From contig DAME01000025.1 of the NCBI GenBank assembly GCA_002499545.1, positions 6,911-70,910 on the forward strand: DNA of 64,000 nt, given 5' to 3'. A program made the translations under genes and the position numbers. Source of the DNA: Euryarchaeota archaeon UBA88 (GTDB lineage: Archaea; Thermoplasmatota; Poseidoniia; Poseidoniales; Poseidoniaceae). Positions 14,901 to 64,000 of the stretch are shown here, piece after piece. The number at the start of each line of letters is the position of its first letter. Position 1 is the stretch's first letter. Below the pieces are notes generated by a model, which did not search any database, was not told where the DNA came from, and saw only the letters and a list, made by a program, of their open reading frames with translations.

Positions 14901-15030
14901 AGTCAACGAGCTTACCTACAGAGGATTGTTCAACGGTCAAGAATATCAACCATCTGATGGGATAGGAAACGGACAGCGTAACATACATGCGGAAATTTGG
15001 GTTGTGTATTACGCTGCCACTCTACAGTGA
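11989..15030 (+). CDS. Secreted/lipid-anchored acidic surface protein with TSP3 calcium-binding repeats and a C-terminal PNGase F-like peptide:N-glycanase domain
   Basis: Signal peptide plus lipobox-like LMFTSGC. At least 8 TSP3 repeats (DTDGDGILDLVDRC, DIDGDGCNDFHEDLDDDNDGVGDDFDECP...). The C-terminal roughly 300 aa align to Flavobacterium PNGase F: CHEWDYEANL vs CDEWDRYANV (Asp60), ITGHGFNKDNANCAEFC vs ISGWGHAKPYDAGSRGCAEWC (Glu206), GCENEV...FGRAGWCAG vs GCSANP...DRAGWCPG (Arg248/Trp251). The disulfide spacing is preserved. Confidence 0.8.
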   Translation: MSKRTVTALILVGLMFTSGCMGAIESDSDLTDEPEIELESISLTASWELAPSQGLVNDAPIQFNVKIQATGQDWTASPMIISPSIELVAEFEWEKTPLGYTLQLTPTEIGSYLVQVDFATTNGAVFALPIPEPLTHTLNVTPVQELAPVLSAPVAIELSEPTIIWFEGSVTHSSITTCTLDYSVRNGESGTVFVRDDGTWKRMIDFSELSDSTAITTTVTCGEFTALSDTVTTQIYLDSPGNDTDGDGILDLVDRCMDGYGAEEGWVSTDESDIDGDGCNDFHEDLDDDNDGVGDDFDECPDSVGWVSTPYADYDSDGCHDADEDLDDDGDGVLDEFDDCPSGQLGWGSNFYSDRDGDGCADLDEDSDDDNDGLEDELDACPRGQSNWFRNTSSDFDDDGCADQSEDEDDDNDGVNDVNITGDMLDRCPRTALNSTDVDQNGCSALQRDTDLDGVNDAHDQCEGTPSGLTVNDVGCADLDNDGVYANVDQCPNSPERWTIEIDGCAVIQQPVAWKSSSPLTGPMQIVPQFSTPTLNGTYYFQQRWTGYDVYFFMFKYTDADGNGNSATWGQNPGPFIRSLPDNVHLFYGSFDTTYHADILNRKAAVENALNPSEEDAWEGRIHYIDQRANGINGGLGQMISSFNSPLYMGIDRFQMARETGSLYAWTSSNNDPMHLVHEPKQWNAEFPVESRRHDSGIHEVKLWDFDAHSGGWGGGFTSAQTSILPSNMSQFDTMEVYHEHACEDRMNRHTKADGSTGGCHEWDYEANLRICDRANASSCGTEFMRWITTYGREGKWLTDISPYLFMLEDDDNRTFKYRGANKGDLTITLLLSNWGSGLRASSADFAFTGGQFDGTYNNESMYDRSLNFTVPSWAERVEIVATITGHGFNKDNANCAEFCDHQHHYYLNGFTTYEWHPLVYSNEGCENEVSNGVVANQFGSWPFGRAGWCAGQDVKQWTYDITSWSDMSGSVNELTYRGLFNGQEYQPSDGIGNGQRNIHAEIWVVYYAATLQ

Positions 15031-17651: not shown

Positions 17652-19274
17652 TTACAATTTTGCATCGTGGGAATCATCCTTGGACGGCTCAATGCGGTTC
17701 CACTTAGGAATACTGTTTGCAGCAGATTGGCTCATCGTCCTTCGAACAAAGAAAATCAAACCTACCAGTGCCCCCAATGCAACCAGACTGAACACCATGT
17801 TGGAGGTCGTTATGCGAGAACTTGCTCCAGCAGCCTCTTCGATACGCAGTGTGAACGCAAGAGAAGATGTTTCGTCATCATCGTCAGAGACGACCAAGCG
17901 GACATCATAGGCCCCCGGACTGGAAAAGTCTGAATGATTGAGAGAGGATTTTCCCGTGACATAGATTTGATCATTGATGTACCATGAACACATGATGTCG
18001 GAAGCATCATTCTGGGTATCTGTGCTCCCATCACAGTTGAGGTCCCATTCACTACCGGATACGGTTGAAATCAATGTCCCGTCACTCACTGTCAGCCCGT
18101 CAAGTTGAATTGCGGGTGACGGTGCTTGGTTGACTACTAAGAATTCATAACTCGTTCGAATCAGGCGACCAACTGAATCGCGAATCAAAAGTTCGACCGA
18201 CCAGGTACCGCTCAATGACGGTTGCAACATGATTTCGGAGTCTGAAAGTTGTTGAGATTCCAAAACAGAATGACGACTACCATCGGGCTGTACGACCGTC
18301 CATGTAAGTTCCATCGAACCACCATCATACCCTTCTATCACGGTACTCGAAAAGGACACGTTTGTAGATTCGAATACGGATTCTATGGTCGAATTCTGTG
18401 ATTCAAGGTCGACTACTCCGTTGGTTTCAGATTGAAAAACGATTTCCACATCTGGCAGAGAGCGGTCAATGTGGAAGGTTAATGTTTGAGATTCAGAAGT
18501 GCGCAGAAGCGAATCAAGAACGTAGATTTTAAGCAACCAAAATCCGTCTGGAAGTGATATTGATTCCGGAGTGAATTCTACATCCCAACCTTGTTCACTT
18601 GGGGTTTGCGAAAAATCAGTGAATTGAGAGAAGGCTTCACGGCAGATACCGAACGGGGCGGGGCATATTTCCATTCGTACTTGGGATTCGATATCGGTAT
18701 GTGGTGCAAAGACCACTGGAACGAACACTTGGGATACGTCGTTCATCACGACGATTCGGTTATTTTTGAAAGGCAAAAGAACAGGCCGGTGATGGTTGAA
18801 CGAATCATCGGAATCTATTGAATCATGGACTTGGATTTCTCCGAGATAGACGATGAGGGAAAACAAGGGTAAGTCAGTACTGTTGACTGCATCCAATGCA
18901 AAGAGACATGTACACTTGATGGCAGTAACATTCAATTCCACATCCCAGTGCCACGAATCCTCTGAAGTAGCTTCGACGTTTGTAAGGTATCCTGTTTCAA
19001 GCGCAACAGGTTGTTCATCGATGGTTGATAGATTGTAAAGAGTCCACATCGTATTTGACAGAGGGATTTCTGAGCTTCCGTTGAGGAACATTTCGGAGGA
19101 AAATGAAGAACCTGTGGTTTGATGAACGGTAACGAGGGATTCCTCAGAAATGGGTTTGTGATGCTTAGCATCTACCAGTCCTGACAAGGTCGGCATCAAA
19201 AAACAGGCCAACATGAGGATAACACAGAACTTGTTGGTCATTCCCATGACCGAGTGTGCGTTCCATTCAAACAT
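17652..19274 (-). CDS. Secreted surface protein with Ig/PKD-like beta domains and a C-terminal TM anchor plus basic tail
   Basis: N-terminal signal peptide (MTNKFCVILMLACFLMPTLSG). A C-terminal hydrophobic helix VFSLVALGALVGLIFFV is followed by RRTMSQ... Ser/Thr/Asp-rich. 540 aa. Confidence 0.68.
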   Translation of the reverse strand: MFEWNAHSVMGMTNKFCVILMLACFLMPTLSGLVDAKHHKPISEESLVTVHQTTGSSFSSEMFLNGSSEIPLSNTMWTLYNLSTIDEQPVALETGYLTNVEATSEDSWHWDVELNVTAIKCTCLFALDAVNSTDLPLFSLIVYLGEIQVHDSIDSDDSFNHHRPVLLPFKNNRIVVMNDVSQVFVPVVFAPHTDIESQVRMEICPAPFGICREAFSQFTDFSQTPSEQGWDVEFTPESISLPDGFWLLKIYVLDSLLRTSESQTLTFHIDRSLPDVEIVFQSETNGVVDLESQNSTIESVFESTNVSFSSTVIEGYDGGSMELTWTVVQPDGSRHSVLESQQLSDSEIMLQPSLSGTWSVELLIRDSVGRLIRTSYEFLVVNQAPSPAIQLDGLTVSDGTLISTVSGSEWDLNCDGSTDTQNDASDIMCSWYINDQIYVTGKSSLNHSDFSSPGAYDVRLVVSDDDDETSSLAFTLRIEEAAGASSRITTSNMVFSLVALGALVGLIFFVRRTMSQSAANSIPKWNRIEPSKDDSHDAKL

Positions 19275-19298: not shown

Positions 19299-22200
19299 TT
19301 ATTGGGCAAACGGATCGCAGAGTTCCCCTTGTCCTGGGAAACTTGTAGGATTGCGGGGATTGGTATCCCACTTGAATTCACAATAATTCACGTGGCCGTC
19401 TCCATCTGTGTCAATCATCCGATCAGCAGGGTCAAACGGATCGAATTGGAAGTGATATTCCCATCCAGTTGCCATACCATCGTCATCATGGTCTTGATAG
19501 TAGACTTCCGGACCATCATTCCAACCGTCACCATCGGTGTCGTTGGTGATTGGGCTGGTGCCGTTTTGCTTCTCTTCCAAGTTGGTATAATTTTCTAAGT
19601 TATCGTAAAACCGTTTTCCATCAGGTGTATCGGGGTCAATATTGCAGTCGGAATTCGTTGTATCATTGTAACCGGAGCAATATTTGCGAATCAGTCCAGT
19701 ACGGTTAAGCCCGTCAGTGTCGGGGTCTTCGTCACCGTCCATGATACCGTCAAGGTCGCTGTCGGGCATGGAAGGGTCCATCACGCCACGAGCGCCGTAA
19801 GCGTCGATTGAGGAATTGTCCACCAGTCCGCTATCCAAAGCAAGTCCGGAGTAGTACACTTCCCATCCATCAGGTAATTGGTCACCATCGGTATCGTCAT
19901 CGACTGGGTTCGTGTTCCACTTGTCAGGTGCTTCAGCCCCATTCGCCAATGAATCGTTATCGATATCAAACGTGTCATCTTTCATCGAACCAAGTGATGG
20001 GTCAAGAGCCCAACGTCCATTGCAGGCACAGAAGTTATTGACGGGAATTGAAAAACCAGTGAGATTCATTTCCGAAACAGCATATTTTTTCTCTACGATG
20101 AAACCGCCCAAGTTATTTTGCCAAACGTAACCACCGGCTTCCATCGAGCAATCGTTGTTTTGTGAGGGGACGCATCCAGGACGTTCCCAGGATGATGTTG
20201 CGACCCAAAGACTGTGGGAATTCGTGTTGTCTTCCGACGATTTTACCTGCATCTCCCAACCGTCAAGCATCCCATCGGAATCGGTATCGTTCTGCAGTGG
20301 ATTGGTTGGATTTTGGAACGGTCGTGGTACGAACAAGACTTCATTTCCGTCAAGAAGACTATCGTTATCTGTATCAGAGTTGTTTGCGTGGGTAAGGAAG
20401 TTATCTTTCCCAGCAATGACTTCTTCTCCATCTTCAAGACCGTCGTTGTCGGTATCAAACATACAAGGACTGGTGAAGTATGATTCACCCTCCCATGTAT
20501 AGCCTGTGAGGGCTTCTATTTGGTCAAGTTCACCATCGCCATCAGTATCCGGATTTGAAGCATTGGAACCTCCAGCACACACTGAAGCGAATTCCATGTA
20601 ATCCGATAAGCCATCTTCATCGGTGTCAAAGAGTCCTGGGTCTGATGTAACCCAGGTCTTGATAACACCGTTATTCACGACGAGAATTTCCCAACCCATC
20701 ACTTCAATTCCATCAAGAAGTCCATCACCGTCAGTGTCTGGATTCAGTGGATTGGTTGAACGACCATCTATCACTCCGTCATTGTCGCGGTCTCGTGCGT
20801 TGTATTCCATGAGGTTCGTGAATTGTTCTTCAGGTTCTACAATTTGCATCCAGCTAAAGAGACGGGACTCGACGGCCTGTCCGAGAGTAACATCAATCGA
20901 ATAAACATAGCCGGCAACTGGCGCAATCATGGCGACAGTTTGCTTCTGACCACCTGCCAGGGTGATTTGGCCACGAGCGACAGTGGAGTTTGCTTCAACC
21001 CACTGGTCTTCAATCACATCAATTCCGATAACGATGGTTGTTGACTCAAGTGTAGAATAGAAGACTCCACCATCTCCATCAACGTCCCAACCGTCTCGAT
21101 CAGGATCGAGGTTGCCGTTAGCACCATCACGGGGGTGAAGCCCGTTAGTTGATTCCCATCCATCTGGCATACCATCTTGGTCAGTATCGAGCCTCCACGG
21201 GGATGTGAAGTTCGTAGGGCCAAATGTGTTCGCAACGAGGTATTCTTCGAAGTTGTTCAGTCCATCTTCATCCCAGTCACCGTATCCGTCGGATGCGTTT
21301 GAGGGATTCAAAACCTTGAGTGCATCGTTCTGCGGTTGGTCATTCACGTTGGAGTAACAAAATTCGAATCCATCCGGCATACCGTCACCGTCGGTGTCCC
21401 AGTCGGATGGTCCGTTGAGTAAACCATCACCGTCCATGTCCATGAGGAACCAAGAGTTTTCAACACCAGAAAACGGAGCTAAGCGTGAAATTGGATCGAG
21501 AAGAGGTGTGTTGCAGTCTTCTCCAACCCCCGTGCTAAGAACGACGGAATCCAAGCCTACTTCGACAATGTCGTCGAGCAAATCCATGTCCGAATCACGA
21601 GCGTTAGGGTTGGTGCCAAAGAGTTCTTCCTGGAAGTTTGGAAGACCGTCTTCATCCGTGTCCAGAATCATATCACAGGAGTGCGAGCCTTGCGAATTGG
21701 CGAGTTCAGACCATGAAGGCAGCACGCCTTCAGCGTCATCATAAAAACTGGAGAGAGTATCTTCCATTGCTTGGTCAAGAAGAAGGCAATCCCAATTTCC
21801 GTTGAGTGGATCGAAGAGGGTAACTTCGCCTCCAGGAGTTTGTACAACCATTGTATACATCGATTCCCAGCGGTCGTTGAGATTGTCATTGTCAGTATCC
21901 GCACGTTGAGGATCGGTGCCGAGTTCTTGCTCGACTTGGTTGGTTAACCCGTCATTATCAGGATCGCCGTTTGGTCCTTGTTCAGGGTCTGGCCAAGAAT
22001 CAGTTTCGTTTTCGATGTTAGCATCGTCGGTTTGATCTGCTTGAGAAGGATCTTGAATGATATCTTCTGATTCACCGTTATCAAGTGGATTGAGGCCGTG
22101 TTCAACTTCCCATCCATCACTCATACCGTCGTTATCCGTATCGGGTTTATCGGGGTCAGTGCCGTACTGAGTCGATTCAAGAGTATCTGAAAGACCGTCC

Positions 22201-22430
22201 CCATCTGAATCTAAACCCGCACCGATTGCCGTACCAGAACCTATCAAATCCTCTTCAGCAGCACTTTCGTATCCACCAATCGATTCACTCGTTTGGAAAT
22301 ATCCTGAAAAACCCACAAAGAGAGAGCCGAAAATCAAGGTAGAAATGATTGCAGCATAGGCCATTTGGTTGTGACTTAAGGACATTTGACTCACCGTGCA
22401 CATCAGTGCAGTCTCTCCGACTTCGTACAT
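19299..22430 (-). CDS. Giant acidic surface protein built from bacterial-type thrombospondin type-3 (TSP3) calcium-binding repeats
   Basis: 1043 aa. N-terminal signal anchor, then more than 15 repeats of D-x-D-x-D-G-[LM]-x-D-G-[WE]-E, for example DSDGDGLSDTLES, DTDNDGMSDGWEVEHGLNPLD and DTDQDGMPDGWESTNGLHP. Very low pI. Alternative start Mets at 22385 and 22361. Confidence 0.75.
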   Translation of the reverse strand: MYEVGETALMCTVSQMSLSHNQMAYAAIISTLIFGSLFVGFSGYFQTSESIGGYESAAEEDLIGSGTAIGAGLDSDGDGLSDTLESTQYGTDPDKPDTDNDGMSDGWEVEHGLNPLDNGESEDIIQDPSQADQTDDANIENETDSWPDPEQGPNGDPDNDGLTNQVEQELGTDPQRADTDNDNLNDRWESMYTMVVQTPGGEVTLFDPLNGNWDCLLLDQAMEDTLSSFYDDAEGVLPSWSELANSQGSHSCDMILDTDEDGLPNFQEELFGTNPNARDSDMDLLDDIVEVGLDSVVLSTGVGEDCNTPLLDPISRLAPFSGVENSWFLMDMDGDGLLNGPSDWDTDGDGMPDGFEFCYSNVNDQPQNDALKVLNPSNASDGYGDWDEDGLNNFEEYLVANTFGPTNFTSPWRLDTDQDGMPDGWESTNGLHPRDGANGNLDPDRDGWDVDGDGGVFYSTLESTTIVIGIDVIEDQWVEANSTVARGQITLAGGQKQTVAMIAPVAGYVYSIDVTLGQAVESRLFSWMQIVEPEEQFTNLMEYNARDRDNDGVIDGRSTNPLNPDTDGDGLLDGIEVMGWEILVVNNGVIKTWVTSDPGLFDTDEDGLSDYMEFASVCAGGSNASNPDTDGDGELDQIEALTGYTWEGESYFTSPCMFDTDNDGLEDGEEVIAGKDNFLTHANNSDTDNDSLLDGNEVLFVPRPFQNPTNPLQNDTDSDGMLDGWEMQVKSSEDNTNSHSLWVATSSWERPGCVPSQNNDCSMEAGGYVWQNNLGGFIVEKKYAVSEMNLTGFSIPVNNFCACNGRWALDPSLGSMKDDTFDIDNDSLANGAEAPDKWNTNPVDDDTDGDQLPDGWEVYYSGLALDSGLVDNSSIDAYGARGVMDPSMPDSDLDGIMDGDEDPDTDGLNRTGLIRKYCSGYNDTTNSDCNIDPDTPDGKRFYDNLENYTNLEEKQNGTSPITNDTDGDGWNDGPEVYYQDHDDDGMATGWEYHFQFDPFDPADRMIDTDGDGHVNYCEFKWDTNPRNPTSFPGQGELCDPFAQ

Positions 22431-54147: not shown

Positions 54148-57045
54148 ATGGAAATGAAGGTTGTGCTCTTGAGCGGTGTCCTCGCATTGTTGATGGTGAG
54201 CTCAGGATTTCTGATCATAGCCAATGAAACAGCAAGCGAAGACGATGGAGAAATCGTAGCTCAAGATGAAAACCAGAACGAACCAGTGAACAATGTACCT
54301 AGCCTCCTCATCGCTTCACAGTTCACCCACCAATGGGACGGAATGAATTCCACAATAAGTGGATTTGTTACCGATGAGCAGAGTAGTTCTTGCTACGTCA
54401 TCGTCATGCTTCTAGATTCAACAAGCCTCGCCCAGGTTGGCGAAACTTTCAATGTGACACCAGACCAAAGCGGTGCATGGTCCATGGCCACACCGTTCTC
54501 GAATCCAGGTACTTGGATTGTGCAAGCTCAAGCCTACGACCAAGAAGGCCAAAGCAGTGATTCTACGATGTCGCAGATAGCCATTGTTGCTCCAGATGAA
54601 AGCGATGTTCTGGTATCTTTTCTCTGGGCTCAACCATTAGAAAATTCCTCGATTGGAACGCTCCAAGGGCTGATGCTTCACATGTTCCCATCGACATGTT
54701 CCGTGGAATACCATCCGCTTGGTCAAAGTCCTGCCAGATTAATTGTCGGTGATACAAATCAAACCAGTGGCCAATTCACTCTACAGGTGAACACCAGTTA
54801 CCACAACACAGTTGGAGACCTCATAGCAGATTGCGGAATGTTTAGTTCCTCATCATCAAGCATACGATTGAACCTTCCCGTACCTCCAGAACCTGAAGGT
54901 GATGAAGACAGTGATGGCGTACTCGATGAATCAGACGAATGTGATAATACGCCACTGGGCGAACCAGTGTATGCGAGCGGCTGCTCAGACTCAGAAACAG
55001 ACACGGACATGGATGGTGTCATGAATGATAAAGACCAATGTCCCAACACGCCGACGTCACAAAGCGTGGATGCGAACGGTTGCGCAGACAGTCAGAAAGA
55101 TACCGACAATGACGGCATCAATAACGTTGCAGACATTTGTCCGAACACTCCCGCAGGGGAATCCGTTGATCTCACAGGATGTTCGGAATCGCAAAAAGAC
55201 GATGACGGTGATGGCGTCACAAATAACCTTGATGAATGCCCAAATACACCTGCCGGTGAGACAGTGAATGCTGTAGGATGTTCAACTGCAGCGCCAAGTC
55301 CAACACCGATGAAAATTCTCGCACTCCATGGTGGTGGAGATTCTGCCTCTGGTTTGGCTTCGCAACAAGGAATGCAAGATTTGATGGATGCACTGCCTGA
55401 ATTTGAGTTCGTTTTCGCCAGCACGCCCGAGAGTGGAAATGTATGGTACCAAGACCCCCCCGGTGGAAAAGGCGAACCAACCACTGACCCAGACTGGGCA
55501 GACCTCGCAATTGCGTATCTCGACCAAAAGGTGATCGATGATGGTCCATTTTATGGTCTGATTGGCTATTCACAAGGTTCTGCAATGATTCCAGTCTACC
55601 TCGCCAACACGGAAAACACGTTCAATAGAGTCATGCTGTACAATGGCTACTTACCAACAACGCATCATGGCCTGATGGACTCCATCGATGATGCCGCTCC
55701 TTTCTCGACGCCAGCTATGATCTTCTCCGGTGAAAACGATGGTGCTTTCAAAGACCTCGCCCCTGCCCTCGCCCAGAAGTTCACTGGTTCGCTCGACCTC
55801 CACAGTCAAACTGCAGGACATCACCTACCGTACGAAAATGACGAGCACTTTGACCAAATACTTACCTTCATTCAAGCGGGAATTGAAACCTACGACCCTG
55901 TCGATTCATGGTATTGCCAAGATGGAACAGGCCCATGGGTCCGTGATGACAATGGAGTCAATGACAACTACAATTCGAACACCAACGGGGTTAGCTCACC
56001 AAATGGTGGAGGGTCCGGACCATGGTTCAAATGCATAATCTCTGTGACCTCCACATCAACGAGTATGACCGCTACGGCCAATGGAATTCCAAACCACAAC
56101 TGGATTTCGGCATTCGGTCCCGGTGATGAACAATCTCACACGTGGCAAATTCCATTGAATCCTGTCAATGATACTACGGGTGGACACAACTCAGCGAATT
56201 GTCCAGCATCAAATGGACGCTGGGAATGCGCTGCTGACCGTGGCCAAATCGCAGTTGCGAGCAATGGTGTGCCGATTTTTGGTCCTGAAGAAGGGCCTGG
56301 TGGTGATGCTGTTGCCCTTGATTTCTTTTACTTTACAGAAGACCGACAACCGATTGATTTAGGCTACTGTGGCGCTCATGCCGGACCGACTGGAGTTCAC
56401 TACCACTGGGACGCAATGTGTCAATATTGGGTTCCTGAAAATGGACAGACAATGGTTGATTATGATTGGTCACTCATAGACTCAAATCAACACTCACCGA
56501 TCATTGGATGGTCCTTTGACGGATATCCAATTTATGGGATGTACACGTGGAATGAAAACGGTGTTGTCCAGGGAATGAAATCGTCGTATGAGATTGATAG
56601 AACCAGCGATGGAGGTGACCAGGGTTACAACGGCATTGATGATTGGACTTACGTTGATGGAATGGGAGACCTTGATGAATGCAATGGAAGGTTTGGAGCG
56701 ACACCCGAATACCCAGACGGAACGTATTACTATGTATCGACACCATTGAGTGGTTCAACCAAGACTGTCGTCGACACGAATGGAGATACGCAACCAATGA
56801 TTGGGTTCCCATACTTCCTTCTTTGCTACCACGGAATTGCAGACGACTCCAATGCTGGCGGGGGCCAGGGCGGCGGCGGTGGCGGCGGTGGATTTATCGC
56901 ACAAACAATCTATCAACACATGCCTGAAGTATTAGAGGATAATTCCGATGAGCGGTCTGTACTCGCACTACTATCGAACAGCACGTGGGTTTGGGTCATG
57001 ATGATTGGAACGCTGTACCTCTACAAGCGTACTGAAAAGCAATGA
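54148..57045 (+). CDS. Secreted multidomain protein: TSP3 calcium-binding repeats, FSH1-type alpha/beta serine hydrolase, YHYH-like Cys/His-rich domain, Gly tract and C-terminal TM anchor
   Basis: Signal peptide; TSP3 repeats (DTDNDGINNVADICPNTPAGESVDLTGCS x4). Hydrolase core ILALHGGGD...GLIGYSQGSAMIP (GxSQG nucleophile)...GENDGAF...GHHLPY (Asp/His). C-terminal GAHAGPTGVHYHWDAMC...DECNGRFGATPEYPDGTYYYV. The protein ends GGGQGGGGGGGGF-IAQ...VWVMMIGTLYLY-KRTEKQ. Confidence 0.8.
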   Translation: MEMKVVLLSGVLALLMVSSGFLIIANETASEDDGEIVAQDENQNEPVNNVPSLLIASQFTHQWDGMNSTISGFVTDEQSSSCYVIVMLLDSTSLAQVGETFNVTPDQSGAWSMATPFSNPGTWIVQAQAYDQEGQSSDSTMSQIAIVAPDESDVLVSFLWAQPLENSSIGTLQGLMLHMFPSTCSVEYHPLGQSPARLIVGDTNQTSGQFTLQVNTSYHNTVGDLIADCGMFSSSSSSIRLNLPVPPEPEGDEDSDGVLDESDECDNTPLGEPVYASGCSDSETDTDMDGVMNDKDQCPNTPTSQSVDANGCADSQKDTDNDGINNVADICPNTPAGESVDLTGCSESQKDDDGDGVTNNLDECPNTPAGETVNAVGCSTAAPSPTPMKILALHGGGDSASGLASQQGMQDLMDALPEFEFVFASTPESGNVWYQDPPGGKGEPTTDPDWADLAIAYLDQKVIDDGPFYGLIGYSQGSAMIPVYLANTENTFNRVMLYNGYLPTTHHGLMDSIDDAAPFSTPAMIFSGENDGAFKDLAPALAQKFTGSLDLHSQTAGHHLPYENDEHFDQILTFIQAGIETYDPVDSWYCQDGTGPWVRDDNGVNDNYNSNTNGVSSPNGGGSGPWFKCIISVTSTSTSMTATANGIPNHNWISAFGPGDEQSHTWQIPLNPVNDTTGGHNSANCPASNGRWECAADRGQIAVASNGVPIFGPEEGPGGDAVALDFFYFTEDRQPIDLGYCGAHAGPTGVHYHWDAMCQYWVPENGQTMVDYDWSLIDSNQHSPIIGWSFDGYPIYGMYTWNENGVVQGMKSSYEIDRTSDGGDQGYNGIDDWTYVDGMGDLDECNGRFGATPEYPDGTYYYVSTPLSGSTKTVVDTNGDTQPMIGFPYFLLCYHGIADDSNAGGGQGGGGGGGGFIAQTIYQHMPEVLEDNSDERSVLALLSNSTWVWVMMIGTLYLYKRTEKQ

Positions 57046-57054
57046 GGACTCGTT

Positions 57055-57696
57055 GTGTCAATTCGACTCGCACCGTTTGCTGTAGTAGTAATGCTCCTCG
57101 TAACAGGATGTGTCACGCCATCAGACCCTGACCTCTACCACGGTGTGGATATATTTCCTGCCAAAAAAACACTTCAATTCAACCTCATCGATGATACGAA
57201 TTCGGAGTTTAATTCCTCATCAATCGAAGGGAGTGTTTGGGTTGTAGGATTCGTATTCACCAATTGTCCCGACTTTTGTTCTACGGTGACAACGGAGATG
57301 AAGGAAATCCAGGATTCGCTCACTGATTGGGAACGCAGAAACACCAGTTTCATCTCTATCACGGTTGACCCTTGGCGGGACGGTCCAATGCTGCTCACGC
57401 AGTACAAAGAAATCATGAACGTGACGTGGCCACACTTAACCACCAATATCGATTCAGAGAACAACCTTTCACGAATCGAAGATGTTTGGACGAATTTTGA
57501 AATTGGCTTGGTTCTTACTGAATCACAAAACAGTACGAGCACATCCGGACGTGGGCATACAGTATACTACAGCATTGAACATACCAATGGTGTCGTACTG
57601 GTTGACGCAAATGGTTTCCAGCAGGTTCAGTGGACTGAAGATAACTGGAACACAACGCTCATTGTTGAAGACGTTCGGATGTTACTGAACGATTGA
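57055..57696 (+). CDS. SCO1/SenC-family copper chaperone (thioredoxin fold), lipoprotein-like
   Basis: FTNCPDFC (CxxxC copper-binding motif) and the conserved His region GHTVYY. N-terminal signal with lipobox-like LLVTGC. 213 aa. Confidence 0.75.
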   Translation: MSIRLAPFAVVVMLLVTGCVTPSDPDLYHGVDIFPAKKTLQFNLIDDTNSEFNSSSIEGSVWVVGFVFTNCPDFCSTVTTEMKEIQDSLTDWERRNTSFISITVDPWRDGPMLLTQYKEIMNVTWPHLTTNIDSENNLSRIEDVWTNFEIGLVLTESQNSTSTSGRGHTVYYSIEHTNGVVLVDANGFQQVQWTEDNWNTTLIVEDVRMLLND

Positions 57697-57697
57697 A

Positions 57698-57874
57698 TCA
57701 TTCGATAGGAATTGTGTAGCCACAGCGACCACATGACTTGCGATCTGAGTGCATAGCAAGGAATACGCCTGGCCCACACGTTGGACAGAATTCGGCCTTT
57801 CGAACGAGTTTACCATCTTCATCAATGGAGTACTTCGACCACTTTGCACTAGCTTTAGGACCGTCGGACATCAT
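57698..57874 (-). CDS. rps27ae: Ribosomal protein S27ae (zinc-ribbon)
   Basis: Not in the ORF track (58 aa). Hand translation gives [58 protein letters not shown], with C-x2-C...C-x2-C and the GVFMA-H-DR motif of S27ae. Its ATG overlaps the rps24e stop (ATGA). Confidence 0.8.
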
Positions 57875-58215
57875 TCGTCACCTCCATCGGTTGATTTTTC
57901 TCCGGCATCGGCAGGTTTCGCAGATGCTGAACGGAATGACTCGTGTCGCTTGTGAATGTATTCGGGCTCAACACGCATTGATTCTGCGTCACCATAGATC
58001 AGTGCCATACCGGTGGTCAATGGTTGACCGAATCGAGTGTTGCACTCTTTAACGACGATGAAATCCGGATTCGAACCAGGTTCCAAGGTTCGGACCAAGT
58101 CCATTACAGCCTTGCGAGAAGGTGTTGCTTGTCCCGAGTGCTGCCAACTGAAGTTAATTTCTACACGGTTGAGTAATTTGTTTTCTTTTCGTGATACGAT
58201 ATCCATACTGTTCAT
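57871..58215 (-). CDS. rps24e: Ribosomal protein S24e
   Basis: [31 protein letters not shown]...[28 protein letters not shown] matches the S24e family. 114 aa with an acidic C-terminus. Confidence 0.85.
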
Positions 58216-58219
58216 CTCC

Positions 58220-58423
58220 TTATCGGTTACTGACTTTGAGGGCGTACTTGCCCGGTCGATCTATTTTCAATCGCTTTGCTATTTCAGAGCGATTTGGACT
58301 CATAATGATGACGTATCCTTGATGGTCGGTGGATACGTGAGCTGTTGGGCAACGGGAACACATGTCTACGCCGTCTTCGAGGACGAGGTGACAGTCGGAG
58401 CATGCAAAAGGAATCTTTACCAT
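58220..58423 (-). CDS. spt4: Transcription elongation factor Spt4 (RNA polymerase subunit E'')
   Basis: 67 aa with a Cys4 zinc ribbon (ACSDCHLV...CSRCP) and W/G..IIM.P..S.IAK.L.I...G.YALKV characteristic of archaeal Spt4. Confidence 0.8.
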   Translation of the reverse strand: MVKIPFACSDCHLVLEDGVDMCSRCPTAHVSTDHQGYVIIMSPNRSEIAKRLKIDRPGKYALKVSNR

Positions 58424-58433
58424 TCATACCACC

Positions 58434-58985
58434 TCACTCGTTGTCTTCTCCAAGCCAGTCATGGCAACCGAGACCCGGCTGCTTGCTGGTCAAACCAATT
58501 TTTGAGCGTCGGGGGTCTGAAGTATCAGGTGAAAGTGAAACAATTCGTGCACGCACTGAGTCTCCAACTCCTATGGAACGATTTGATTGTCGGCCTTGAA
58601 TAACTCCAGCACCGACATTTGCTTCAACCTGGTCTTCCATAATTTGAGACTTGTGAAGCAGGGCTTCCATTGGCCCGATTCGGACGAATGCTCCGAATTC
58701 ATTGACTTCGGAAACCGCACCTTCAACGACTTCGTAATCATCCATGCAGAATAAAACAGCGTCGAATCTGACACGCTGATAGATAGCACCATCACCGTGA
58801 ATAATTCGGCCTCGGCCAAGAGGTTCGTGGTTTGTCGTTACGAGAATGAAGCGATTATCATCGTCAAATCGGCCCTCAAAGGCAGTCATCGAGAGACGGT
58901 CGATGTGGTCGTTCAGCGATGCGCCTTTGCGCATGTACTCTGCTGGAATGCGAATCGTGTCTTCTTTTGTGACAATTTTGTACAT
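58434..58985 (-). CDS. rpo7: DNA-directed RNA polymerase subunit E' (Rpo7, Rpb7 homologue) with S1 domain
   Basis: MYKIVTKEDTIRIPAEY... matches the archaeal RpoE' N-terminus; a C-terminal S1-like OB region follows. The track ORF has a 24-codon upstream extension; start set at M25 (58985). Confidence 0.85.
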   Translation of the reverse strand: MYKIVTKEDTIRIPAEYMRKGASLNDHIDRLSMTAFEGRFDDDNRFILVTTNHEPLGRGRIIHGDGAIYQRVRFDAVLFCMDDYEVVEGAVSEVNEFGAFVRIGPMEALLHKSQIMEDQVEANVGAGVIQGRQSNRSIGVGDSVRARIVSLSPDTSDPRRSKIGLTSKQPGLGCHDWLGEDNE

Positions 58986-59258
58986 TGTGTTCACCTCATG
59001 ACGTCTCAGAGGTGCAAAGAAGGGGAGTGGGAAACCCATTCCGTCCTTCACCGGCATGCGCCTCGGGAGAGAAGTCGACCGTAGTCATTCTCGCCACCGA
59101 TGACCCCTATTTAATCCACTCGCATGAAAAAAGAGAACTGCGAAGACAAAATGATGGTGAATATCTTCGTTCGTAGTCCTACTTAGCGTGCATGAATCAT
59201 ACTTTTTTGAGCCATTACGCCATAAGCCATAACAACCCCCCGAGTACCCTTTACTGCA

Positions 59259-62200
59259 ATGACAGCGCAAGCGTTGCACAGAAGGGGAAAATTTGTTCCC
59301 GCAATGGTGCCTCTGCTGCTGCTCATTTTGACCTCGATATCACCAGCTGTTTTATTCGAAATCAACGAACCAACACTGCTGTCTGAAAACCAACAGATTT
59401 CGAATGTAGATGGTGACTCTGTTTGGGACCCACTCACGCAGCCTTGGGGCCAATATGGACGCACACCTACGCGAAATGGAACAATGCCAATGCATGGGGC
59501 TGACGGTGGTCCCGGCATCGGATCGGTTGAAGATGTAACGGTGTACGGGACCATAGACCACCCAGTCGTGAATTGGGTAGGACTCGATGATAGCGATGGT
59601 TCTGACGCTTACGGCTCAATCATCGGGGACTTCAGCAACAGCATTTCACGGCCTGATGCCGCTATCGAACGATGTGGAAAAGGACAATTATTCCCCGTGA
59701 CTGTCCACAATGACGGGGTCGAAAGTTACCTCAGTATTTTGACCGGTGACGATGCAAAAGTGGCATGGCAAGTGAATCTCGGTCAATCCAATGAAATTCG
59801 CTCAACCCCAATACTTCACGACATCGATGGAGACGAAAAGCCAGAAATTCTTGTTGTCTACGACACTGCAAGTTCGCTACAAGTGGATGCATGGTCTCCA
59901 GAATTAACTTGCACTGAATCAGGATGGCAAAAAAACGGCCACAGCAATGAACGACTGTGGAGTTACAGTGATACAAACTATCGAATTGGAATCACCAGTC
60001 CTCACGCACCCACTAGCCAAAGCAATCATGATTCAATCACGCAGCCACTGTTGGCAGACCTACAGTTAGATGGTTCGCCTGAATTGGTGTTGGCAGTGGT
60101 CGATGAAAATTCCAACGACCCGACCGTCATCTCATTCACACTTACCACAAGCGTGCCCAGTGAACCTGACTGGCAAATCTCGTTGGATAGGGGCACGCAC
60201 CCTTCTGACCCATCGTGGGCGGCCTTGGACTCTTCGACAACGGCCGTTGTTTTGACGACCATTGATTCGAATTCTGGAAACATGTGGATTTGGAGGATAG
60301 ACGGTGCATCGGGCTCGCTTGATTGGGAGCGTGTGGCCGTCCAGGGTACAGACTCAGATTCCGACTCTCCCAGATTGCGCCTACCCGGACCCGTTATTGT
60401 TCAACTCGACCAGGACGATGCACCGGAAATGATCATCACCGTACCCACCGACTCCAATGGACGTACGAGCGGCAACGGTGCACGGTTCATTGGAATGGAA
60501 CTAACCTCGACTACTGAAGTATTCAATTTCCGAGCTCCGAATGGATATTCCGACACCCAGCCCTTACCGATTGATACCACCGGTGATGGTGAGCATGACC
60601 GGTTGTGTTGGGCGACATGGTATTCAGAGTCAACCCTCACTTTCAATCGGAAAGGAATGGTAGGGTGCCACGATATCAGCCTTGAGACCCCGCTGAAAGA
60701 TTGGTCTCGAGATCTTCAACGCGGCAACGGTAATGACAACGATGAAATCGCAGTTTCATCACCGTTCTGGATGGATATTGACGGCAACGATGAGCCCGAG
60801 GTACTGATTGCATTCGGACAGCGATTGTGGGCATTCGATGGAGAAACTGGGGCATCAGCAGATATCAACAATGCGTGGTCATCCCCACTCTCGATGCCTC
60901 ATCGAGTTTGGGCAAGTGCTGCTGTAGCAGACGTCGATGGAGACGGTACGCTTGACATTCTCATCGGAGATACGCTGGTATCACAACAGGTAGCGGATAT
61001 GGCCCCCTTAGCTGACCAGCGCGGAATTAGTTTCAATCCGACCGAACCAGACCCAGGGCAACAAGTTACGATTACTGGGCAGTTTTCCAACATTGGTACA
61101 ATGGACAACGATGAAAATGTTGACGCTGTACTACTGCTCAACGGTAACGAAATTGCACGTGAGCGTTTTGCGGATGTGGAACCTATTGCTCCATCGGGAG
61201 AAGGCGGACCTCTCACGTTTAGTACAGTCATCACTGCGGAACTTGGGATCCATAACATCACCATGATTCTAGATGTCAATTCGAACCTCACTGAAGCACG
61301 AGAAGACAACAACATCGCTTCAACAGAATTGGTCGTTGTGGAACCGTTCGTGGCACAGGTCGAACTACCAGTTGAGACGCCAAGAATTTCGCCAGGAACG
61401 AGTCAACAAATCTCAATCCAACTCCTTTCAACCGGGTCTCGGACCGCAGATTGGACACTCACTTGGGACGACTCTGCTATGCCCGATGATTGGAGTTTTT
61501 CTGCCCCACAGGGTACTGACCTCAATCCAACTCTATCACCAAATGCCCCTGTGACCATTGTCTTTGATGCATCAGTACCCGGCGATGCGCTGGGTGATGA
61601 AAACACCTATGTTGACCTCATACTAACCCTGGACCAAGATACGTCTGTTAATTCAACGGTTCGAATGCCGCTAGAAGTTCTTCGTACCCGTGGACTGTCG
61701 GTGACTGGCCCAAGTGGTCTAATGGTGAGCGATGGATTTGGCAGAGTTGGTCACACAGCATCAGCCTGGATGGTGATAGAGAACCTTGGCAATGCTCAAG
61801 AAACTACCACCTCGATTGAATGGACTGCTCCTGCCTGGGGTGGAACACCGTCACTGCACCGGGATGACGGTTCAGAAGTGTTCTCACTCACCCTGAGCCC
61901 AAATGAGAACGTAGAATTGTTCGCTCACCTCACCGTACCTCTTTCAACCAGCATAGGCTCCTCAACATCGACGATTCTCACCATGTGTATTGGCAGTGGA
62001 GAATCAACGCTGTGTGAGGAATTAGAAATCTCGTTCACTGCCGTATCAGTTACCGTATCGCCAATTCACACCCGAAGCTTGCCGAACGCATCGCTTACAT
62101 GGACGGTTGAGGCTGACTTACCTACAAGTGGTGAATTGAAATGGAACATGGCAGCGGCAAACATGATTCACAACGGTTGGTCTTGGACCACTGCAGGTTC

Positions 62201-64000
62201 ACTTTCACTCAACGGAACCGGCATTGAACTAACTGGAGACGGAGATTCGTTTGCAACGGGAAGTATCACACTTGCTCTCCCAGTCGATGCCGTGCCTCAC
62301 CGTCACGTGTTTTCATCCAACGACGACATTGTTTCCAACGCAGATCTGAATTTTTCGTTGCAAGTTCTGCAAATTTATCGTGCCAAGGCAACACTGCTTG
62401 AGCCATTACCCCCCGCCAACGATCAAGCTTTTTCTATGAACGTTTCAGAAACCGAATCTGTGCTCCTTCGGTTGGAGAATCCTGGCAACGGACAAGACGA
62501 CTTCCTGCTCACCACTGATGTGAAGGAAGTGAGCCAGGGAATCCCTGCACCAAATGTAACGTTTGAAATCCTTTACAGCGACCAACGCAGCCTCGGGCCG
62601 TTAGCCTCAACAATCGCAACGGTCGAAGTGACGCTTGCTGAAGACGTGCCCGCTCAAGAACCGTTTATTCTCTCTTTCATATGGACCTCGCTGGGCGATG
62701 CATCCGTCTTCGATGTCGTGGATGTGTTGGTTGAAGCAGAGCCCGACCACCGTTGGGGTCTCAACATCAGTTCCGAACTCGATACGCTCGTGGTACCGGA
62801 TGAAAGGGTAACCATCAATATGACAGCAACCAACATTGGCAATGCCGATGACACGCTCACGATTGTCCCCGTTTTTACTGTCGAACACTACGGTGACGAT
62901 TCGTCGGAGTGGACTGCGGCATCACTCAGCAGCGAGCAAGAACTGAATGTCAACCAGAGTGAATCACTGTCATTGAATTTCACAGTCCCCCGCCTAGCTT
63001 GGCATCAATCAAGTGCTGAGTTGGAACTTCGAATGTATTCTGAAGAAATTTATGTCAGCAGTACGAACATTACATTCACCGTAGACCACGTTTCTGGGTG
63101 GAGATTCAATTTGGCCAATACATCCCTCACCATCGACCCAAGCGGTCAAAATCTAACCCTCACAGTGCAGCAACTCGGTAACGCACCCTCTGCTCCGTAC
63201 TACGCTAAAGCAGGTGCAGGGTGGAACCTTACACTCTCGGATGGAGGAGAAACAGTACAGCCCCAGCAAACCACGACGATGAATGTCTTTGTCATGCCGC
63301 CAGAAGATGCAATCGCTGGAGAAATAGGGCTGCTTCAACTCCGTATCAGCGACACAGACGGGGCTGGTTCTGTGGTTCAACAAATACCCGTGCGAATTGG
63401 AGAAGCACCCAACATTAGCATCGCACACAAAGGTGTGTGGAAAATCAATTCTGCGGGAGGGTTACCCACAGCATGGATTGAAAACAACGGAAACGATGTC
63501 GCTGTTCTCGAACTGGAACTCACCGGTCTACCGGAAGGCTGGACCGTTGAAGGACATGACCAACTGGTGATCGCTCCGAATCAAATCAAAGGCATTCCAC
63601 TCAATCCTGTGCCGACCAGCGAATGGTCCGGTCAACGGTTCCTGGCCACACTCGAAGTCGTTCACCCAACTCTTGGAATGATGAGTTATGACATTGAAAT
63701 CGAACGAGGCATCTATGCTTTCCTGACCACACCGGTTCACCAAGCCACAGTTGGGAGTGAGGTTATCACGATTATGAATTCTGAAGTAAATGATGGTGAC
63801 TTGACGAGTTCTGAAACGATAACGATGAGCGATAACATGCTGACACTCCAGGTTAGCAATGGAGCGAATGAAGTTATCCTCACATCGTCTGAAGAACCTC
63901 AAGACTCACTTTCAATCTACGTGTACGGGTACGAATTACCTGAGGTTTCAGTTAACTGTGATCTGCAAACATCGAGTTTCAGCGACCTAGGGCGAATCAA
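59259..64000 (+). CDS. Giant cell-surface glycoprotein (5' partial, at least 1580 aa inside the window) with FG-GAP-like repeats and CARDB/Ig-like domains; candidate S-layer protein or adhesin
   Basis: Hand translation of frame 0 from the ATG at 59259 (MTAQALHRRGKFVPAMVPLLLLILTSISPAVLF, a signal peptide) shows no stop codon through 63998. The ORF track omits it because it has no stop in the window. It has FG-GAP-like D-x-D-G-D repeats (DIDGDEKPEILVV, DIDGNDEPEVLIA, DVDGDGTLDILIG) and a CARDB-like segment (QQVTITGQFSNIGTMDNDENVDAVLLLNGNE). There are tens of N-x-S/T sequons (NIT, NST, NLT, NAS, NGT, NVS). Confidence 0.8.
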   Translation, partial: MTAQALHRRGKFVPAMVPLLLLILTSISPAVLFEINEPTLLSENQQISNVDGDSVWDPLTQPWGQYGRTPTRNGTMPMHGADGGPGIGSVEDVTVYGTIDHPVVNWVGLDDSDGSDAYGSIIGDFSNSISRPDAAIERCGKGQLFPVTVHNDGVESYLSILTGDDAKVAWQVNLGQSNEIRSTPILHDIDGDEKPEILVVYDTASSLQVDAWSPELTCTESGWQKNGHSNERLWSYSDTNYRIGITSPHAPTSQSNHDSITQPLLADLQLDGSPELVLAVVDENSNDPTVISFTLTTSVPSEPDWQISLDRGTHPSDPSWAALDSSTTAVVLTTIDSNSGNMWIWRIDGASGSLDWERVAVQGTDSDSDSPRLRLPGPVIVQLDQDDAPEMIITVPTDSNGRTSGNGARFIGMELTSTTEVFNFRAPNGYSDTQPLPIDTTGDGEHDRLCWATWYSESTLTFNRKGMVGCHDISLETPLKDWSRDLQRGNGNDNDEIAVSSPFWMDIDGNDEPEVLIAFGQRLWAFDGETGASADINNAWSSPLSMPHRVWASAAVADVDGDGTLDILIGDTLVSQQVADMAPLADQRGISFNPTEPDPGQQVTITGQFSNIGTMDNDENVDAVLLLNGNEIARERFADVEPIAPSGEGGPLTFSTVITAELGIHNITMILDVNSNLTEAREDNNIASTELVVVEPFVAQVELPVETPRISPGTSQQISIQLLSTGSRTADWTLTWDDSAMPDDWSFSAPQGTDLNPTLSPNAPVTIVFDASVPGDALGDENTYVDLILTLDQDTSVNSTVRMPLEVLRTRGLSVTGPSGLMVSDGFGRVGHTASAWMVIENLGNAQETTTSIEWTAPAWGGTPSLHRDDGSEVFSLTLSPNENVELFAHLTVPLSTSIGSSTSTILTMCIGSGESTLCEELEISFTAVSVTVSPIHTRSLPNASLTWTVEADLPTSGELKWNMAAANMIHNGWSWTTAGSLSLNGTGIELTGDGDSFATGSITLALPVDAVPHRHVFSSNDDIVSNADLNFSLQVLQIYRAKATLLEPLPPANDQAFSMNVSETESVLLRLENPGNGQDDFLLTTDVKEVSQGIPAPNVTFEILYSDQRSLGPLASTIATVEVTLAEDVPAQEPFILSFIWTSLGDASVFDVVDVLVEAEPDHRWGLNISSELDTLVVPDERVTINMTATNIGNADDTLTIVPVFTVEHYGDDSSEWTAASLSSEQELNVNQSESLSLNFTVPRLAWHQSSAELELRMYSEEIYVSSTNITFTVDHVSGWRFNLANTSLTIDPSGQNLTLTVQQLGNAPSAPYYAKAGAGWNLTLSDGGETVQPQQTTTMNVFVMPPEDAIAGEIGLLQLRISDTDGAGSVVQQIPVRIGEAPNISIAHKGVWKINSAGGLPTAWIENNGNDVAVLELELTGLPEGWTVEGHDQLVIAPNQIKGIPLNPVPTSEWSGQRFLATLEVVHPTLGMMSYDIEIERGIYAFLTTPVHQATVGSEVITIMNSEVNDGDLTSSETITMSDNMLTLQVSNGANEVILTSSEEPQDSLSIYVYGYELPEVSVNCDLQTSSFSDLGRI

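Follow-up and report, generated by a model that had tools for sequence, protein, structure and literature searches.

The 64,000-nucleotide (nt) stretch of Euryarchaeota archaeon UBA88 DNA considered here (contig DAME01000025.1, positions 6,911 to 70,910 of the forward strand; hereafter the window) ends inside a large gene that begins at its position 59259. We find that this gene encodes a member of an uncharacterised family of large type I surface proteins from archaea, which combine known parts, namely FG-GAP repeats and Ig-like modules. By sequence comparison the family is sharply delimited: in every genome of Marine Group II (MG-II) that we examined it is present once, in one slot and at a fixed length. 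Structure prediction and hydropathy allow us to propose with high confidence that the product is an exported, single-pass, type I membrane-anchored surface protein. The evidence on its role is comparative and structural-predictive, and the reading that we place first, tentatively and at a little under an even chance, is that of a core component of the cell envelope, stalked and of the S-layer type.

The Poseidoniales (MG-II) have been described as the archaea that are most abundant in surface-ocean plankton, and none of them is in culture (PMC6461757). The interest of the family lies mainly in the fact that, for an uncultured order of archaea that dominates globally, it is the obvious envelope candidate, a universal protein of fixed length and ~207 kDa being a prime candidate for the main surface structure of Poseidoniales. 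Its conserved propeller, predicted to face outward, is also a candidate virus receptor and could offer a handle for cell sorting, antibodies and identification by cryo-electron tomography. The MG-II literature that we searched mentions 'adhesion domains' generically and holds no description of the family, its gene order, its tail motif or its 5′ element.

Open frame and domain plan of the large surface protein

An earlier sequence-only reading of this DNA had described a frame that stays open from 59259 to the edge of the window, and this is indeed the case: 1580 codons on the plus strand (59259-64000) are free of stops. The nearest in-frame stop on the 5′ side is a TAA at 59223, and the ATG at 59259 is the first start codon thereafter. 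As had also been pointed out, the frame is missing from the list of open reading frames for want of a stop, since it runs off the window, and only small open frames occur elsewhere in the span, none of the five other frames holding more than 138 amino acids (aa). Given the base composition of the region, a 1580-codon open frame has a chance probability of ~1.8e-33. The true 3′ end, which the reading had suggested looking for, could be located through a database search: the full-length counterpart P0001 (locus L001, on TARA_SAMEA2623126 scaffold_534) is 1911 aa long, and just 2 substitutions (Q4E and M16I) in 1580 residues separate it from the window product. The window therefore contains the first 83% of the gene and is without its last 331 codons. 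The complete protein has a mass of ~207 kDa, and the isoelectric point (pI) of its ectodomain is ~4.05.

The concern that the region might be a collapsed-repeat misassembly proved unfounded. Tandem Repeats Finder reported 0 arrays between 59000 and 64000, and P0001, which comes from an independent assembly, is concordant. The sole direct repeat is a 32-nt motif present in three copies of 66-78% identity, whose translation, D-[IV]-D-G-[DN]-x-x-P-E, is the calcium loop of the FG-GAP repeat. An artefact of any kind, be it a collapsed repeat, a chance frame or a pseudogene, is ruled out by the chance probability of the order of 1e-33, the lack of repeats, the independent assembly and the existence of hundreds of full-length homologues; the confident folding of the protein throughout by AlphaFold2 is a further argument against it.

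Two AlphaFold2 runs, covering aa 1-1200 and aa 1101-1911, were made with 30-sequence alignments spanning 30-70% identity. The mean predicted local distance difference test score (pLDDT) was 80.8 for the first and 80.9 for the second, and the models are all-beta with a transmembrane (TM) helix and terminal helices (Table 1). Only two stretches stand out as hydrophobic in the hydropathy profile, aa 12-35 and aa 1782-1804, and a KRKK cluster comes after the latter. The first of them accounts for the signal peptide that had been proposed and appears as such in both the hydropathy profile and the models; homologues bear classical Sec-type signal peptides, which are presumably cleaved.

The FG-GAP propeller and the CARDB/Ig-like modules, likewise proposed from the letters, are supported by Pfam thresholds as well as by the models. 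The head comprises eight FG-GAP-like repeats starting at about aa 109, 181, 260, 313, 375, 430, 497 and 549, with a predicted blade count of 7 or 8, and each repeat has conserved acidic loop residues of the D-x-D-x-D-G...E/D calcium-loop type followed by a hydrophobic strand. Pfam recognises FG-GAP_3 (PF13517) at aa 506-569 with 34.0 bits against a cut-off of 26.9, and FG-GAP is also matched. CARDB (PF07705) is found at aa 591-688 with 32.5 bits against a cut-off of 22.7 (E = 1e-7). Further along, NPCBM_assoc matches D7 at aa 1298-1355 with 20.1-23.1 bits, slightly under its cut-off of 24.4, and D6 gives a weak 'choice-of-anchor T' match that stays far under the cut-off of that family. A CARDB-like N-x-G-N/T motif recurs in 6 of the 11 sandwich domains. 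Nothing in NCBIfam matched above threshold and no PGF-CTERM match was found in the protein.

Ten cysteines (139, 218, 450, 470, 910, 919, 1567, 1589, 1702 and 1750) are the same in all of the 171 homologues compared. Three N-glycosylation sequons are also kept in 85% or more of these proteins (N73 in 85%, N676 in 100%, and N1232). Invariant cysteines and conserved sequons thus fit with an oxidising, extracellular and partly glycosylated ectodomain. The unusually high density of sequons claimed before could not be reproduced: the fragment holds 18 where 15.6 are expected from composition, the ectodomain of the full protein 20 against 17.8, and the 171 family members average 19.2 against 17.4 in shuffled sequences, an observed/expected ratio of 1.14.

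Such a domain content might also be that of a surface-anchored scaffold for substrate capture or enzymes, in which a lectin-like or polymer-binding propeller feeds extracellular peptidases and glycosidases. VCBS/FG-GAP propellers include lectins such as tachylectin (PMC8023676), sandwiches resembling NPCBM_assoc and CARDB are common in secreted glycosidases and peptidases, and genes for an S8 peptidase and for further acidic proteins destined for export lie in the same region. Yet no catalytic domain was detected by Pfam or NCBIfam across the 1911 aa, no functional tie was seen with the gene for the peptidase, at a distance of ~10 kb in the window, and a universal fixed length together with synteny with information-processing genes would be atypical of such a protein. 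We consider this explanation unlikely.

Family distribution, gene order and the cytoplasmic side

A first search returned more than 120 homologues with 52-69% identity over ~100% of the query and lengths of 1810-1945 aa, with one exception of 1652 aa. With aa 1-1200 as query, HMMER was run exhaustively against 1.84 billion cluster representatives and gave only 332 matches at E <= 1e-3, mainly fragments. Among them are ~15 full-length clusters, with identities down to 34% and lengths that all fall between 1846 and 1975 aa, and a few remote relatives of 24-26% identity and 908-2350 aa, one of which is labelled as a Thermoplasmata archaeon. When the deepest full-length member (P0134) served as query, only proteins of 1847-1946 aa were recovered, at 28-31% identity and with Poseidoniaceae entries included. 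A scan of one genome per species of the Genome Taxonomy Database (GTDB) yielded at least 225 loci (best match 71%), and nearly all of the matches listed carry the label Poseidoniales or unclassified (eury)archaeon; the original MG-II genome, CM001443.1, has a homologue of 56% identity. A second copy was seen in none of the best 80 of the 225 assemblies. Column identity peaks in the propeller (0.7-0.9 for aa 100-650) and is lowest in the signal peptide, D9 and the disordered tail. The names given to these proteins in databases are generic: hypothetical, CARDB domain-containing, FG-GAP-like repeat-containing or VCBS repeat-containing. The number of domains is invariant down to 30% identity, which argues for a geometric constraint on a core component.

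The sequence-only reading had offered an S-layer glycoprotein or a giant adhesin as possible identities. The former is plausible and has become our leading reading, while the latter is unsupported. An accessory giant adhesin of the repeat-expanded kind would be in keeping with the large size, the signal peptide and the adhesion-associated Pfam names. However, the DNA is devoid of tandem or long direct repeats, the domains are mutually divergent, the length is constant across the order (1846-1975 aa) and all related genomes examined have the gene at a single conserved locus. It is hard to see these features in an accessory adhesin, and we regard this identity as very improbable.

One full-length homologue of 49% identity (L056) is found on NZEQ01000024.1, which is assigned to 'Verrucomicrobiales bacterium isolate ARS100'. 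It has the same synteny with rpoE′ and the downstream gene described below, and the same 5′ element; almost certainly this is a Poseidoniales contig mis-binned into a bacterial metagenome-assembled genome.

The placement of the gene opposite the rpoE′-spt4-rps24e-rps27ae operon was correctly read from the letters: all four genes lie on the minus strand and diverge from it. Four loci covering 52-100% identity share one gene order, with S27ae, S24e, Spt4 and RpoE′ on the minus strand, the large gene and a small gene on the plus strand and then, back on the minus strand, the genes for SAICAR synthase and eIF6. Of 84 loci compared by tblastn, 82 have rpoE′ upstream and 81 have the small gene on the downstream side; neighbours are missing from the few remaining loci because those contigs end too early.

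The small gene has the same orientation as the large one and begins 22-60 bp 3′ of it, the spacing being 22-44 bp in the four loci compared for gene order. Its product is 227-237 aa long across the order (229 aa at L001), with 37-60% identity and a conserved C-terminus (AERRxVG..LR.H). Neither a signal peptide nor a TM segment was found in it, it matches no Pfam family, and no relatives were detected in NCBIfam or among PDB sequences. Between the stop codon of the large gene and the ATG of the small gene there is a Shine–Dalgarno (SD)-like AAGGTGG and no oligo-T run, which makes co-transcription of the two genes plausible. We propose the 229-aa protein as a candidate cytoplasmic partner of the tail of the surface protein.

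That tail follows the TM helix in every full-length homologue; it is 67-121 aa long, and its net charge has a median of −18. In P0001 it has ~107 aa and is acidic, with 23 E and 10 D. The residues immediately after the TM helix, ...LKPPQQQENTKRKK, are alike in homologues and do not include a GFFKR motif. Most of the tail is divergent and its end is conserved. The motif SG[RK]L..[LIM]R is present in 130 of the 171 homologues, and a terminal amphipathic pattern hydrophobic-x-x-[RK]-hydrophobic-x-x-hydrophobic occurs within the last 32 residues of 135 of them, compared with 4.8% of shuffled tails (examples are MDERMKRLF, IEERMSKFF, DDFERRLRRL and IDSRIDRML). AlphaFold2 predicts a short helix at each of the two conserved sites. 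Read with the acidic residues that precede it, the terminal pattern may be likened to the MIM1 consensus of ESCRT-III proteins, (D/E)xxLxxRLxxL(K/R), as a lead.

Two distant relatives of the Thermoplasmata type, P0178 (2329 aa) and P0191 (2350 aa), are 24-25% identical to the window protein over aa 99-850. They share its plan of signal peptide, ectodomain and TM helix and possess much longer cytoplasmic ends, that of P0178 carrying a zinc-ribbon-like CxxC...CxxC at its C-terminus. These long ends hint that the cytoplasmic part of the superfamily is functional.

The cytoplasmic side is also part of the case for a different explanation, namely that the protein is an integrin-like receptor or adhesin that forms no lattice. 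Its Ca-dependent propeller, kept at a distance from the membrane by the Ig-like leg, would bind an external ligand such as a particle or algal polymer, a glycan or another cell, and the tail motif would pass binding or force on to a cytoplasmic partner, for example the 229-aa protein. This would account for the type I topology with a cytoplasmic tail, for a tail-end motif conserved far above the level of shuffled tails, and for a gene of cytoplasmic type that is invariably downstream with an SD-like AAGGTGG and no intervening oligo-T. The folded-looking cytoplasmic ends of distant relatives such as P0178 are in line with it, and adhesion domains and attachment to particles are invoked in the MG-II literature (PMC4511931; PMC6461757). 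On the other hand, adhesion receptors usually vary between lineages whereas the window gene is universal and of fixed length, the gene is present too in clades described as mostly free-living (PMC6864105), and the partner belongs to no recognisable family. Together with the structural comparisons discussed below, this makes a receptor without a lattice possible, though less probable than a core envelope protein; the two are not mutually exclusive. More specifically, and rather improbably in our estimation, the protein may be an archaeal integrin-like transmembrane coupling device and not a passive coat, its C-terminal helix docking a cytoplasmic partner. This partner could be the 229-aa protein or an MIT-type ATPase; the envelope would then be linked to the division, shape or signalling machinery, with the 5′ element as the control point.

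Two side observations concern the flanks of the conserved gene block. Between a 317-aa gene and rps27ae, the interval 54148-57696 holds two genes that are present in the window and in L001, and none is found at that position in L002-L004. One (54148-57045) encodes an exported acidic protein of 965 aa with thrombospondin type-3 repeats, an FSH1 serine hydrolase and YHYH, the other encodes SCO1/SenC, and the pair looks like a lineage-specific insertion beside the block. On the other side, 3′ of eIF6 in the 1-Mb contig of L002 (L002:16114-19596), ~3.4 kb are without a called gene and could harbour an RNA gene.

Table 1. Features of the large gene, its product and its neighbours (window positions unless stated otherwise; AF2, AlphaFold2)
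Feature	Position	Strand	Basis or remark
Near-invariant element CGCCATAAGCCATAACAACCCCCCGA, tandem CCATAAG/CCATAAC	59218-59243	+	−41 to −16 from the ATG
Partial coding sequence, residues 1-1580 of the 1911-aa predicted type I membrane surface protein	59259-64000	+	Open frame; P0001/L001
Predicted signal peptide, aa 1-36 (basic n-region, hydrophobic helix 12-35)	59259-59366	+	Hydropathy, AF2
Low-confidence linker, aa 37-75, with sequon N73	59367-59483	+	pLDDT <50 at aa 28-74
FG-GAP/VCBS-type beta-propeller head, aa 76-585	59484-61013	+	Pfam; AF2 pLDDT mostly 80-90
Beta-sandwich D1 (CARDB), aa 588-694, invariant sequon N676	61020-61340	+	Pfam, AF2 strands
Beta-sandwich D2, aa 697-808	61347-61682	+	AF2 secondary structure, pLDDT
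Beta-sandwich D3 (CARDB-like), aa 811-929, ENLGNA motif, conserved Cys910-Cys919 pair	61689-62045	+	
Beta-sandwich D4, aa 930-1037	62046-62369	+	AF2
Beta-sandwich D5 (CARDB-like), aa 1040-1161, ENPGNG motif	62376-62741	+	AF2, motif
Beta-sandwich D6, aa 1165-1276, NIGNADD motif, conserved sequon N1232	62751-63086	+	AF2, motif
Beta-sandwich D7 (NPCBM_assoc/NEW3-like), aa 1280-1381	63096-63401	+	AF2 pLDDT >90
Beta-sandwich D8, aa 1385-1484, ENNGND motif	63411-63710	+	AF2, motif
Beta-sandwich D9, aa 1490-1560, least conserved ectodomain segment	63726-63938	+	AF2, conservation profile
Beta-sandwich D10, start (domain aa 1562-1667), cut by the window edge	63942-64000	+	AF2
D11, aa 1670-1770	outside the window		AF2; from P0001/L001
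TM helix, aa 1779-1798, to 1804 by hydropathy	outside the window		AF2, hydropathy; from P0001/L001
Acidic disordered tail, aa 1802-1875; short helices, aa 1879-1891 and 1900-1908	outside the window		AF2; from P0001/L001
Candidate partner gene, 229 aa	L001:15780-16469, beyond the 3′ edge of the window	co-directional	43 nt past the large gene
rpoE′ (S1 + SHS2_Rpb7)	58434-59057	−	Upstream neighbour
spt4	58220-58423	−	
rps24e	57871-58215	−	
rps27ae	57698-57874	−	

Upstream element of the gene and the rpoE′ leader

The upstream region of its own that the gene had been credited with, of roughly 200 bp, corresponds to an annotated intergenic gap of 201 bp. In aligned intergenic regions the element CGCCATAAGCCATAACAACCCCCCGA is exact in 20 loci; since the proteins of these loci are 56-71% identical (the near-identical L001 apart), synonymous sites are expected to be saturated. 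Its core, CCATAAnnnATAACAACCCC, is present in 78 of 84 related loci, invariably 13-16 nt 5′ of the ATG. The 64-kb window contains the element a single time, where 0 occurrences are expected by chance. A metagenome-wide scan for exact copies of the core produced 120 contigs. In 62 of these the next feature downstream, in the same orientation, is a homologue of the large gene; the remaining 58 are either truncated contigs or unrelated low-GC, gut or sludge sequences without shared flanks. About 20 nt further 5′ of the element lies a T-rich, TATA-like stretch, and in loci of the Poseidonia clade the element is followed by an SD-like AGGCGGTGAT. RNAalifold gave no conserved fold over a stretch made up of the element and the initial 50 nt of coding sequence, and Rfam gave no match over 58700-59400. 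On this evidence the element is specific to the large gene and strongly constrained, and we consider it a candidate for a promoter-proximal or regulator site, or for the 5′ end of the mRNA.

There are short Logan contigs that begin 45-48 nt before the ATG, but a transcription start at this point was rejected as their ends coincide with conserved blocks; one Logan contig ends in the TATA block of rpoE′. More generally, the ends of such contigs (L205:1-60, L206:1-60 and L207:1-165) tend to fall exactly at the two conserved intergenic blocks, and they are most likely breaks of the de Bruijn graph at sequence common to co-occurring strains. Caution is accordingly due when transcript ends are read from short-read contig ends of this kind.

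A second conserved feature of the intergenic region belongs to the divergent neighbour. The rpoE′ leader (58986-59125, minus strand) is a deeply conserved segment of ~105 nt, flanked by a TATA box, TTAAATAG (the reverse complement of 59108-59115), on one side and by the likely start codon of rpoE′ on the other. The true rpoE′ start is probably the second Met (MYKIVT, ~58985), which is preceded by an SD-like GAGGTGA; homologues are called at 183-188 aa, compared with 207 aa here. The core of the leader, UUCUCUCC-n-GAGG-(loop)-CCGGUGAAGGACGGAA, is invariant, and its layout looks like that of a K-turn, an L7Ae-type site. Two hairpins are present as well, one of them GAC-UNCG-GUC and the other variable, in which compensatory changes can be seen. 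No Rfam match was obtained for it. RNAalifold predicts 10 pairs, the z-score of the single-sequence minimum free energy is just −1.55, and the motif occurs once in the window. The pairs show little covariation because the core is invariant.

A possible core envelope role and known systems

In the model that we tentatively prefer, the protein would be a constitutive structural part of the Poseidoniales envelope, in a coat of the S-layer or glycocalyx type. The Ig-like array would form a pillar of fixed length anchored in the membrane, with the conserved propeller as distal canopy or contact surface. Calcium and five conserved pairs of cysteines capable of forming disulfides could stabilise the structure, which would be N-glycosylated at a few conserved sites, and the conserved tail might tie the coat to the cell interior, possibly with the help of the plausibly co-transcribed cytoplasmic protein. 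That the gene is universal, present as a single copy in the assemblies listed, embedded in a housekeeping neighbourhood and equipped with a private cis-element argues for a core structural part and not for an accessory adhesin.

Two archaeal S-layer proteins may be regarded as precedents for a single huge protein serving as anchor, stalk and canopy. PySLP of Pyrobaculum is a 292-kDa protein that combines 19 Ig-like domains with a C-terminal TM helix and extends over 37 nm (bioRxiv 10.64898/2026.08.21.746120), and NmSLP of N. maritimus has 1734 aa, 10 Ig-like domains, an acidic, Lys-poor composition and 17 glycans (PMC11153153). Proteins of this class are exported by means of a signal peptide and kept at the surface by a TM helix, a PGF-CTERM lipid anchor or a partner protein; in the window protein these parts would be played by the predicted signal peptide and the single predicted C-terminal TM helix.

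A number of observations nevertheless weigh against a core envelope protein or lend it no support. Codon bias is flat and uninformative on expression, the effective number of codons being 56.1 for the large gene compared with 50-59 for its neighbours and nearly all genes of the window. According to a Red Sea metatranscriptome study, which does not mention the family, the MG-II mRNAs that dominate are those for surface proteins of a disordered or collagen-like kind (PMC5069720); the supplements of the Red Sea mdRNA-Seq study contain no FG-GAP, CARDB or S-layer entry and no 5′ motif. The comparison with S-layer proteins suggested earlier gave no membership of a known S-layer family in Pfam, NCBIfam or the PDB: no sequence similarity to a curated S-layer family or a solved S-layer protein was found, and Pfam and NCBIfam return only FG-GAP_3, CARDB, a sub-threshold NPCBM_assoc and choice-of-anchor T. 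A propeller head as an S-layer module was not found in the PySLP and NmSLP papers, and the literature searched yielded no description of an S-layer or envelope, or by cryo-electron microscopy, of Poseidoniales. The long, acidic, conserved tail and the conserved cytoplasmic operon partner look more like those of a receptor. Lastly, an acidic composition with little Lys is common to exported proteins encoded in the window, for example the products of 11989-15030, 19299-22430 and 54148-57045, and therefore carries no weight for an S-layer.

Further large, Lys-poor and very acidic proteins (pI ~4.05-4.3, with up to 14.6% Asp) are encoded in the window at 11989-15030 (plus strand), 17652-19274 (minus) and 19299-22430 (minus), and an N-terminus resembling a signal peptide is present in the first of them at least. 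Since big acidic proteins for export are numerous in this organism, such a composition does not by itself point to an S-layer candidate.

The closest structural neighbours include receptor ectodomains and an S-layer protein. Foldseek searches of the PDB with the model of aa 1-1200 retrieved ectodomains of integrin alpha chains (alphaV, alphaIIb, alphaM and alphaX; 4o02_A, 4mmx_A, 8gce_A, 7usm_A, 5es4, 3k71 and others), aligned over ~1020-1070 columns with E = 1e-17 to 1e-14, TM-scores of 0.2-0.28 and ~10% identity. Further matches were Ig/ASH-array proteins of the ciliary central apparatus and MG-domain arrays of alpha-2-macroglobulin and complement. With aa 1101-1911, similar arrays were found along with the Haloferax S-layer protein csg (7ptp_A, E = 2.7e-10). 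Since the TM-scores are low, these matches reflect the type and order of domains and not a rigid shape; a sequence search of the PDB with the large protein gave nothing meaningful. As far as the models can tell, integrin alpha is the sole solved protein type that matches the plan of head plus leg as a whole, which speaks for a ligand-binding receptor. The resemblance is architectural, however, and homology has not been demonstrated beyond the shared FG-GAP/VCBS repeat. In addition, no gene resembling the beta subunit (betaI/hybrid/PSI/EGF) with which integrin alpha obligately pairs was seen nearby in the conserved neighbourhood (whole genomes were not searched).

Prokaryotic 'hypothetical' proteins with FG-GAP/VCBS and CARDB domains have the same domain content as the window protein, and the generic FG-GAP_3 and CARDB families are the only ones in Pfam to which it belongs. 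Unlike in the family described here, the labels of such proteins imply no fixed length, synteny, tail, partner or 5′ element. The metazoan LINKIN/ITFG1 has been described as another transmembrane protein with atypical FG-GAP repeats (PMC4275582).

With the stalked S-layer proteins PySLP, NmSLP and csg, the window protein has in common a signal peptide, a length in the range of ~1700-2700 aa, arrays of Ig-like domains, an acidic Lys-poor composition and N-glycosylation sequons, and with PySLP also a C-terminal TM anchor. It differs from them in having no detectable sequence homology and no PGF-CTERM signal. PySLP has a conserved basic tail just after the TM helix, in contrast to the acidic tail of 67-121 aa with a conserved end found here, and the word 'propeller' does not appear in the PySLP paper (bioRxiv 10.64898/2026.08.21.746120), whereas the window protein is predicted to have an FG-GAP propeller head. 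If it is a true S-layer protein, a propeller-headed architecture would be added to the known Ig-array S-layers.

Integrin alpha, for its part, shares with the predicted structure an N-terminal FG-GAP propeller with calcium loops, Ig-like legs, one TM helix and a cytoplasmic tail. The window protein falls outside the definition of integrin alpha: it has 11 leg domains as opposed to three (thigh, calf-1 and calf-2), no GFFKR and no known beta partner. Further differences are its eight repeat units as opposed to seven, its archaeal origin and its restriction to one order. Should it turn out to be a true integrin-like receptor acting with its partner, it would represent an unusual, conserved case of outside-in coupling in archaea.

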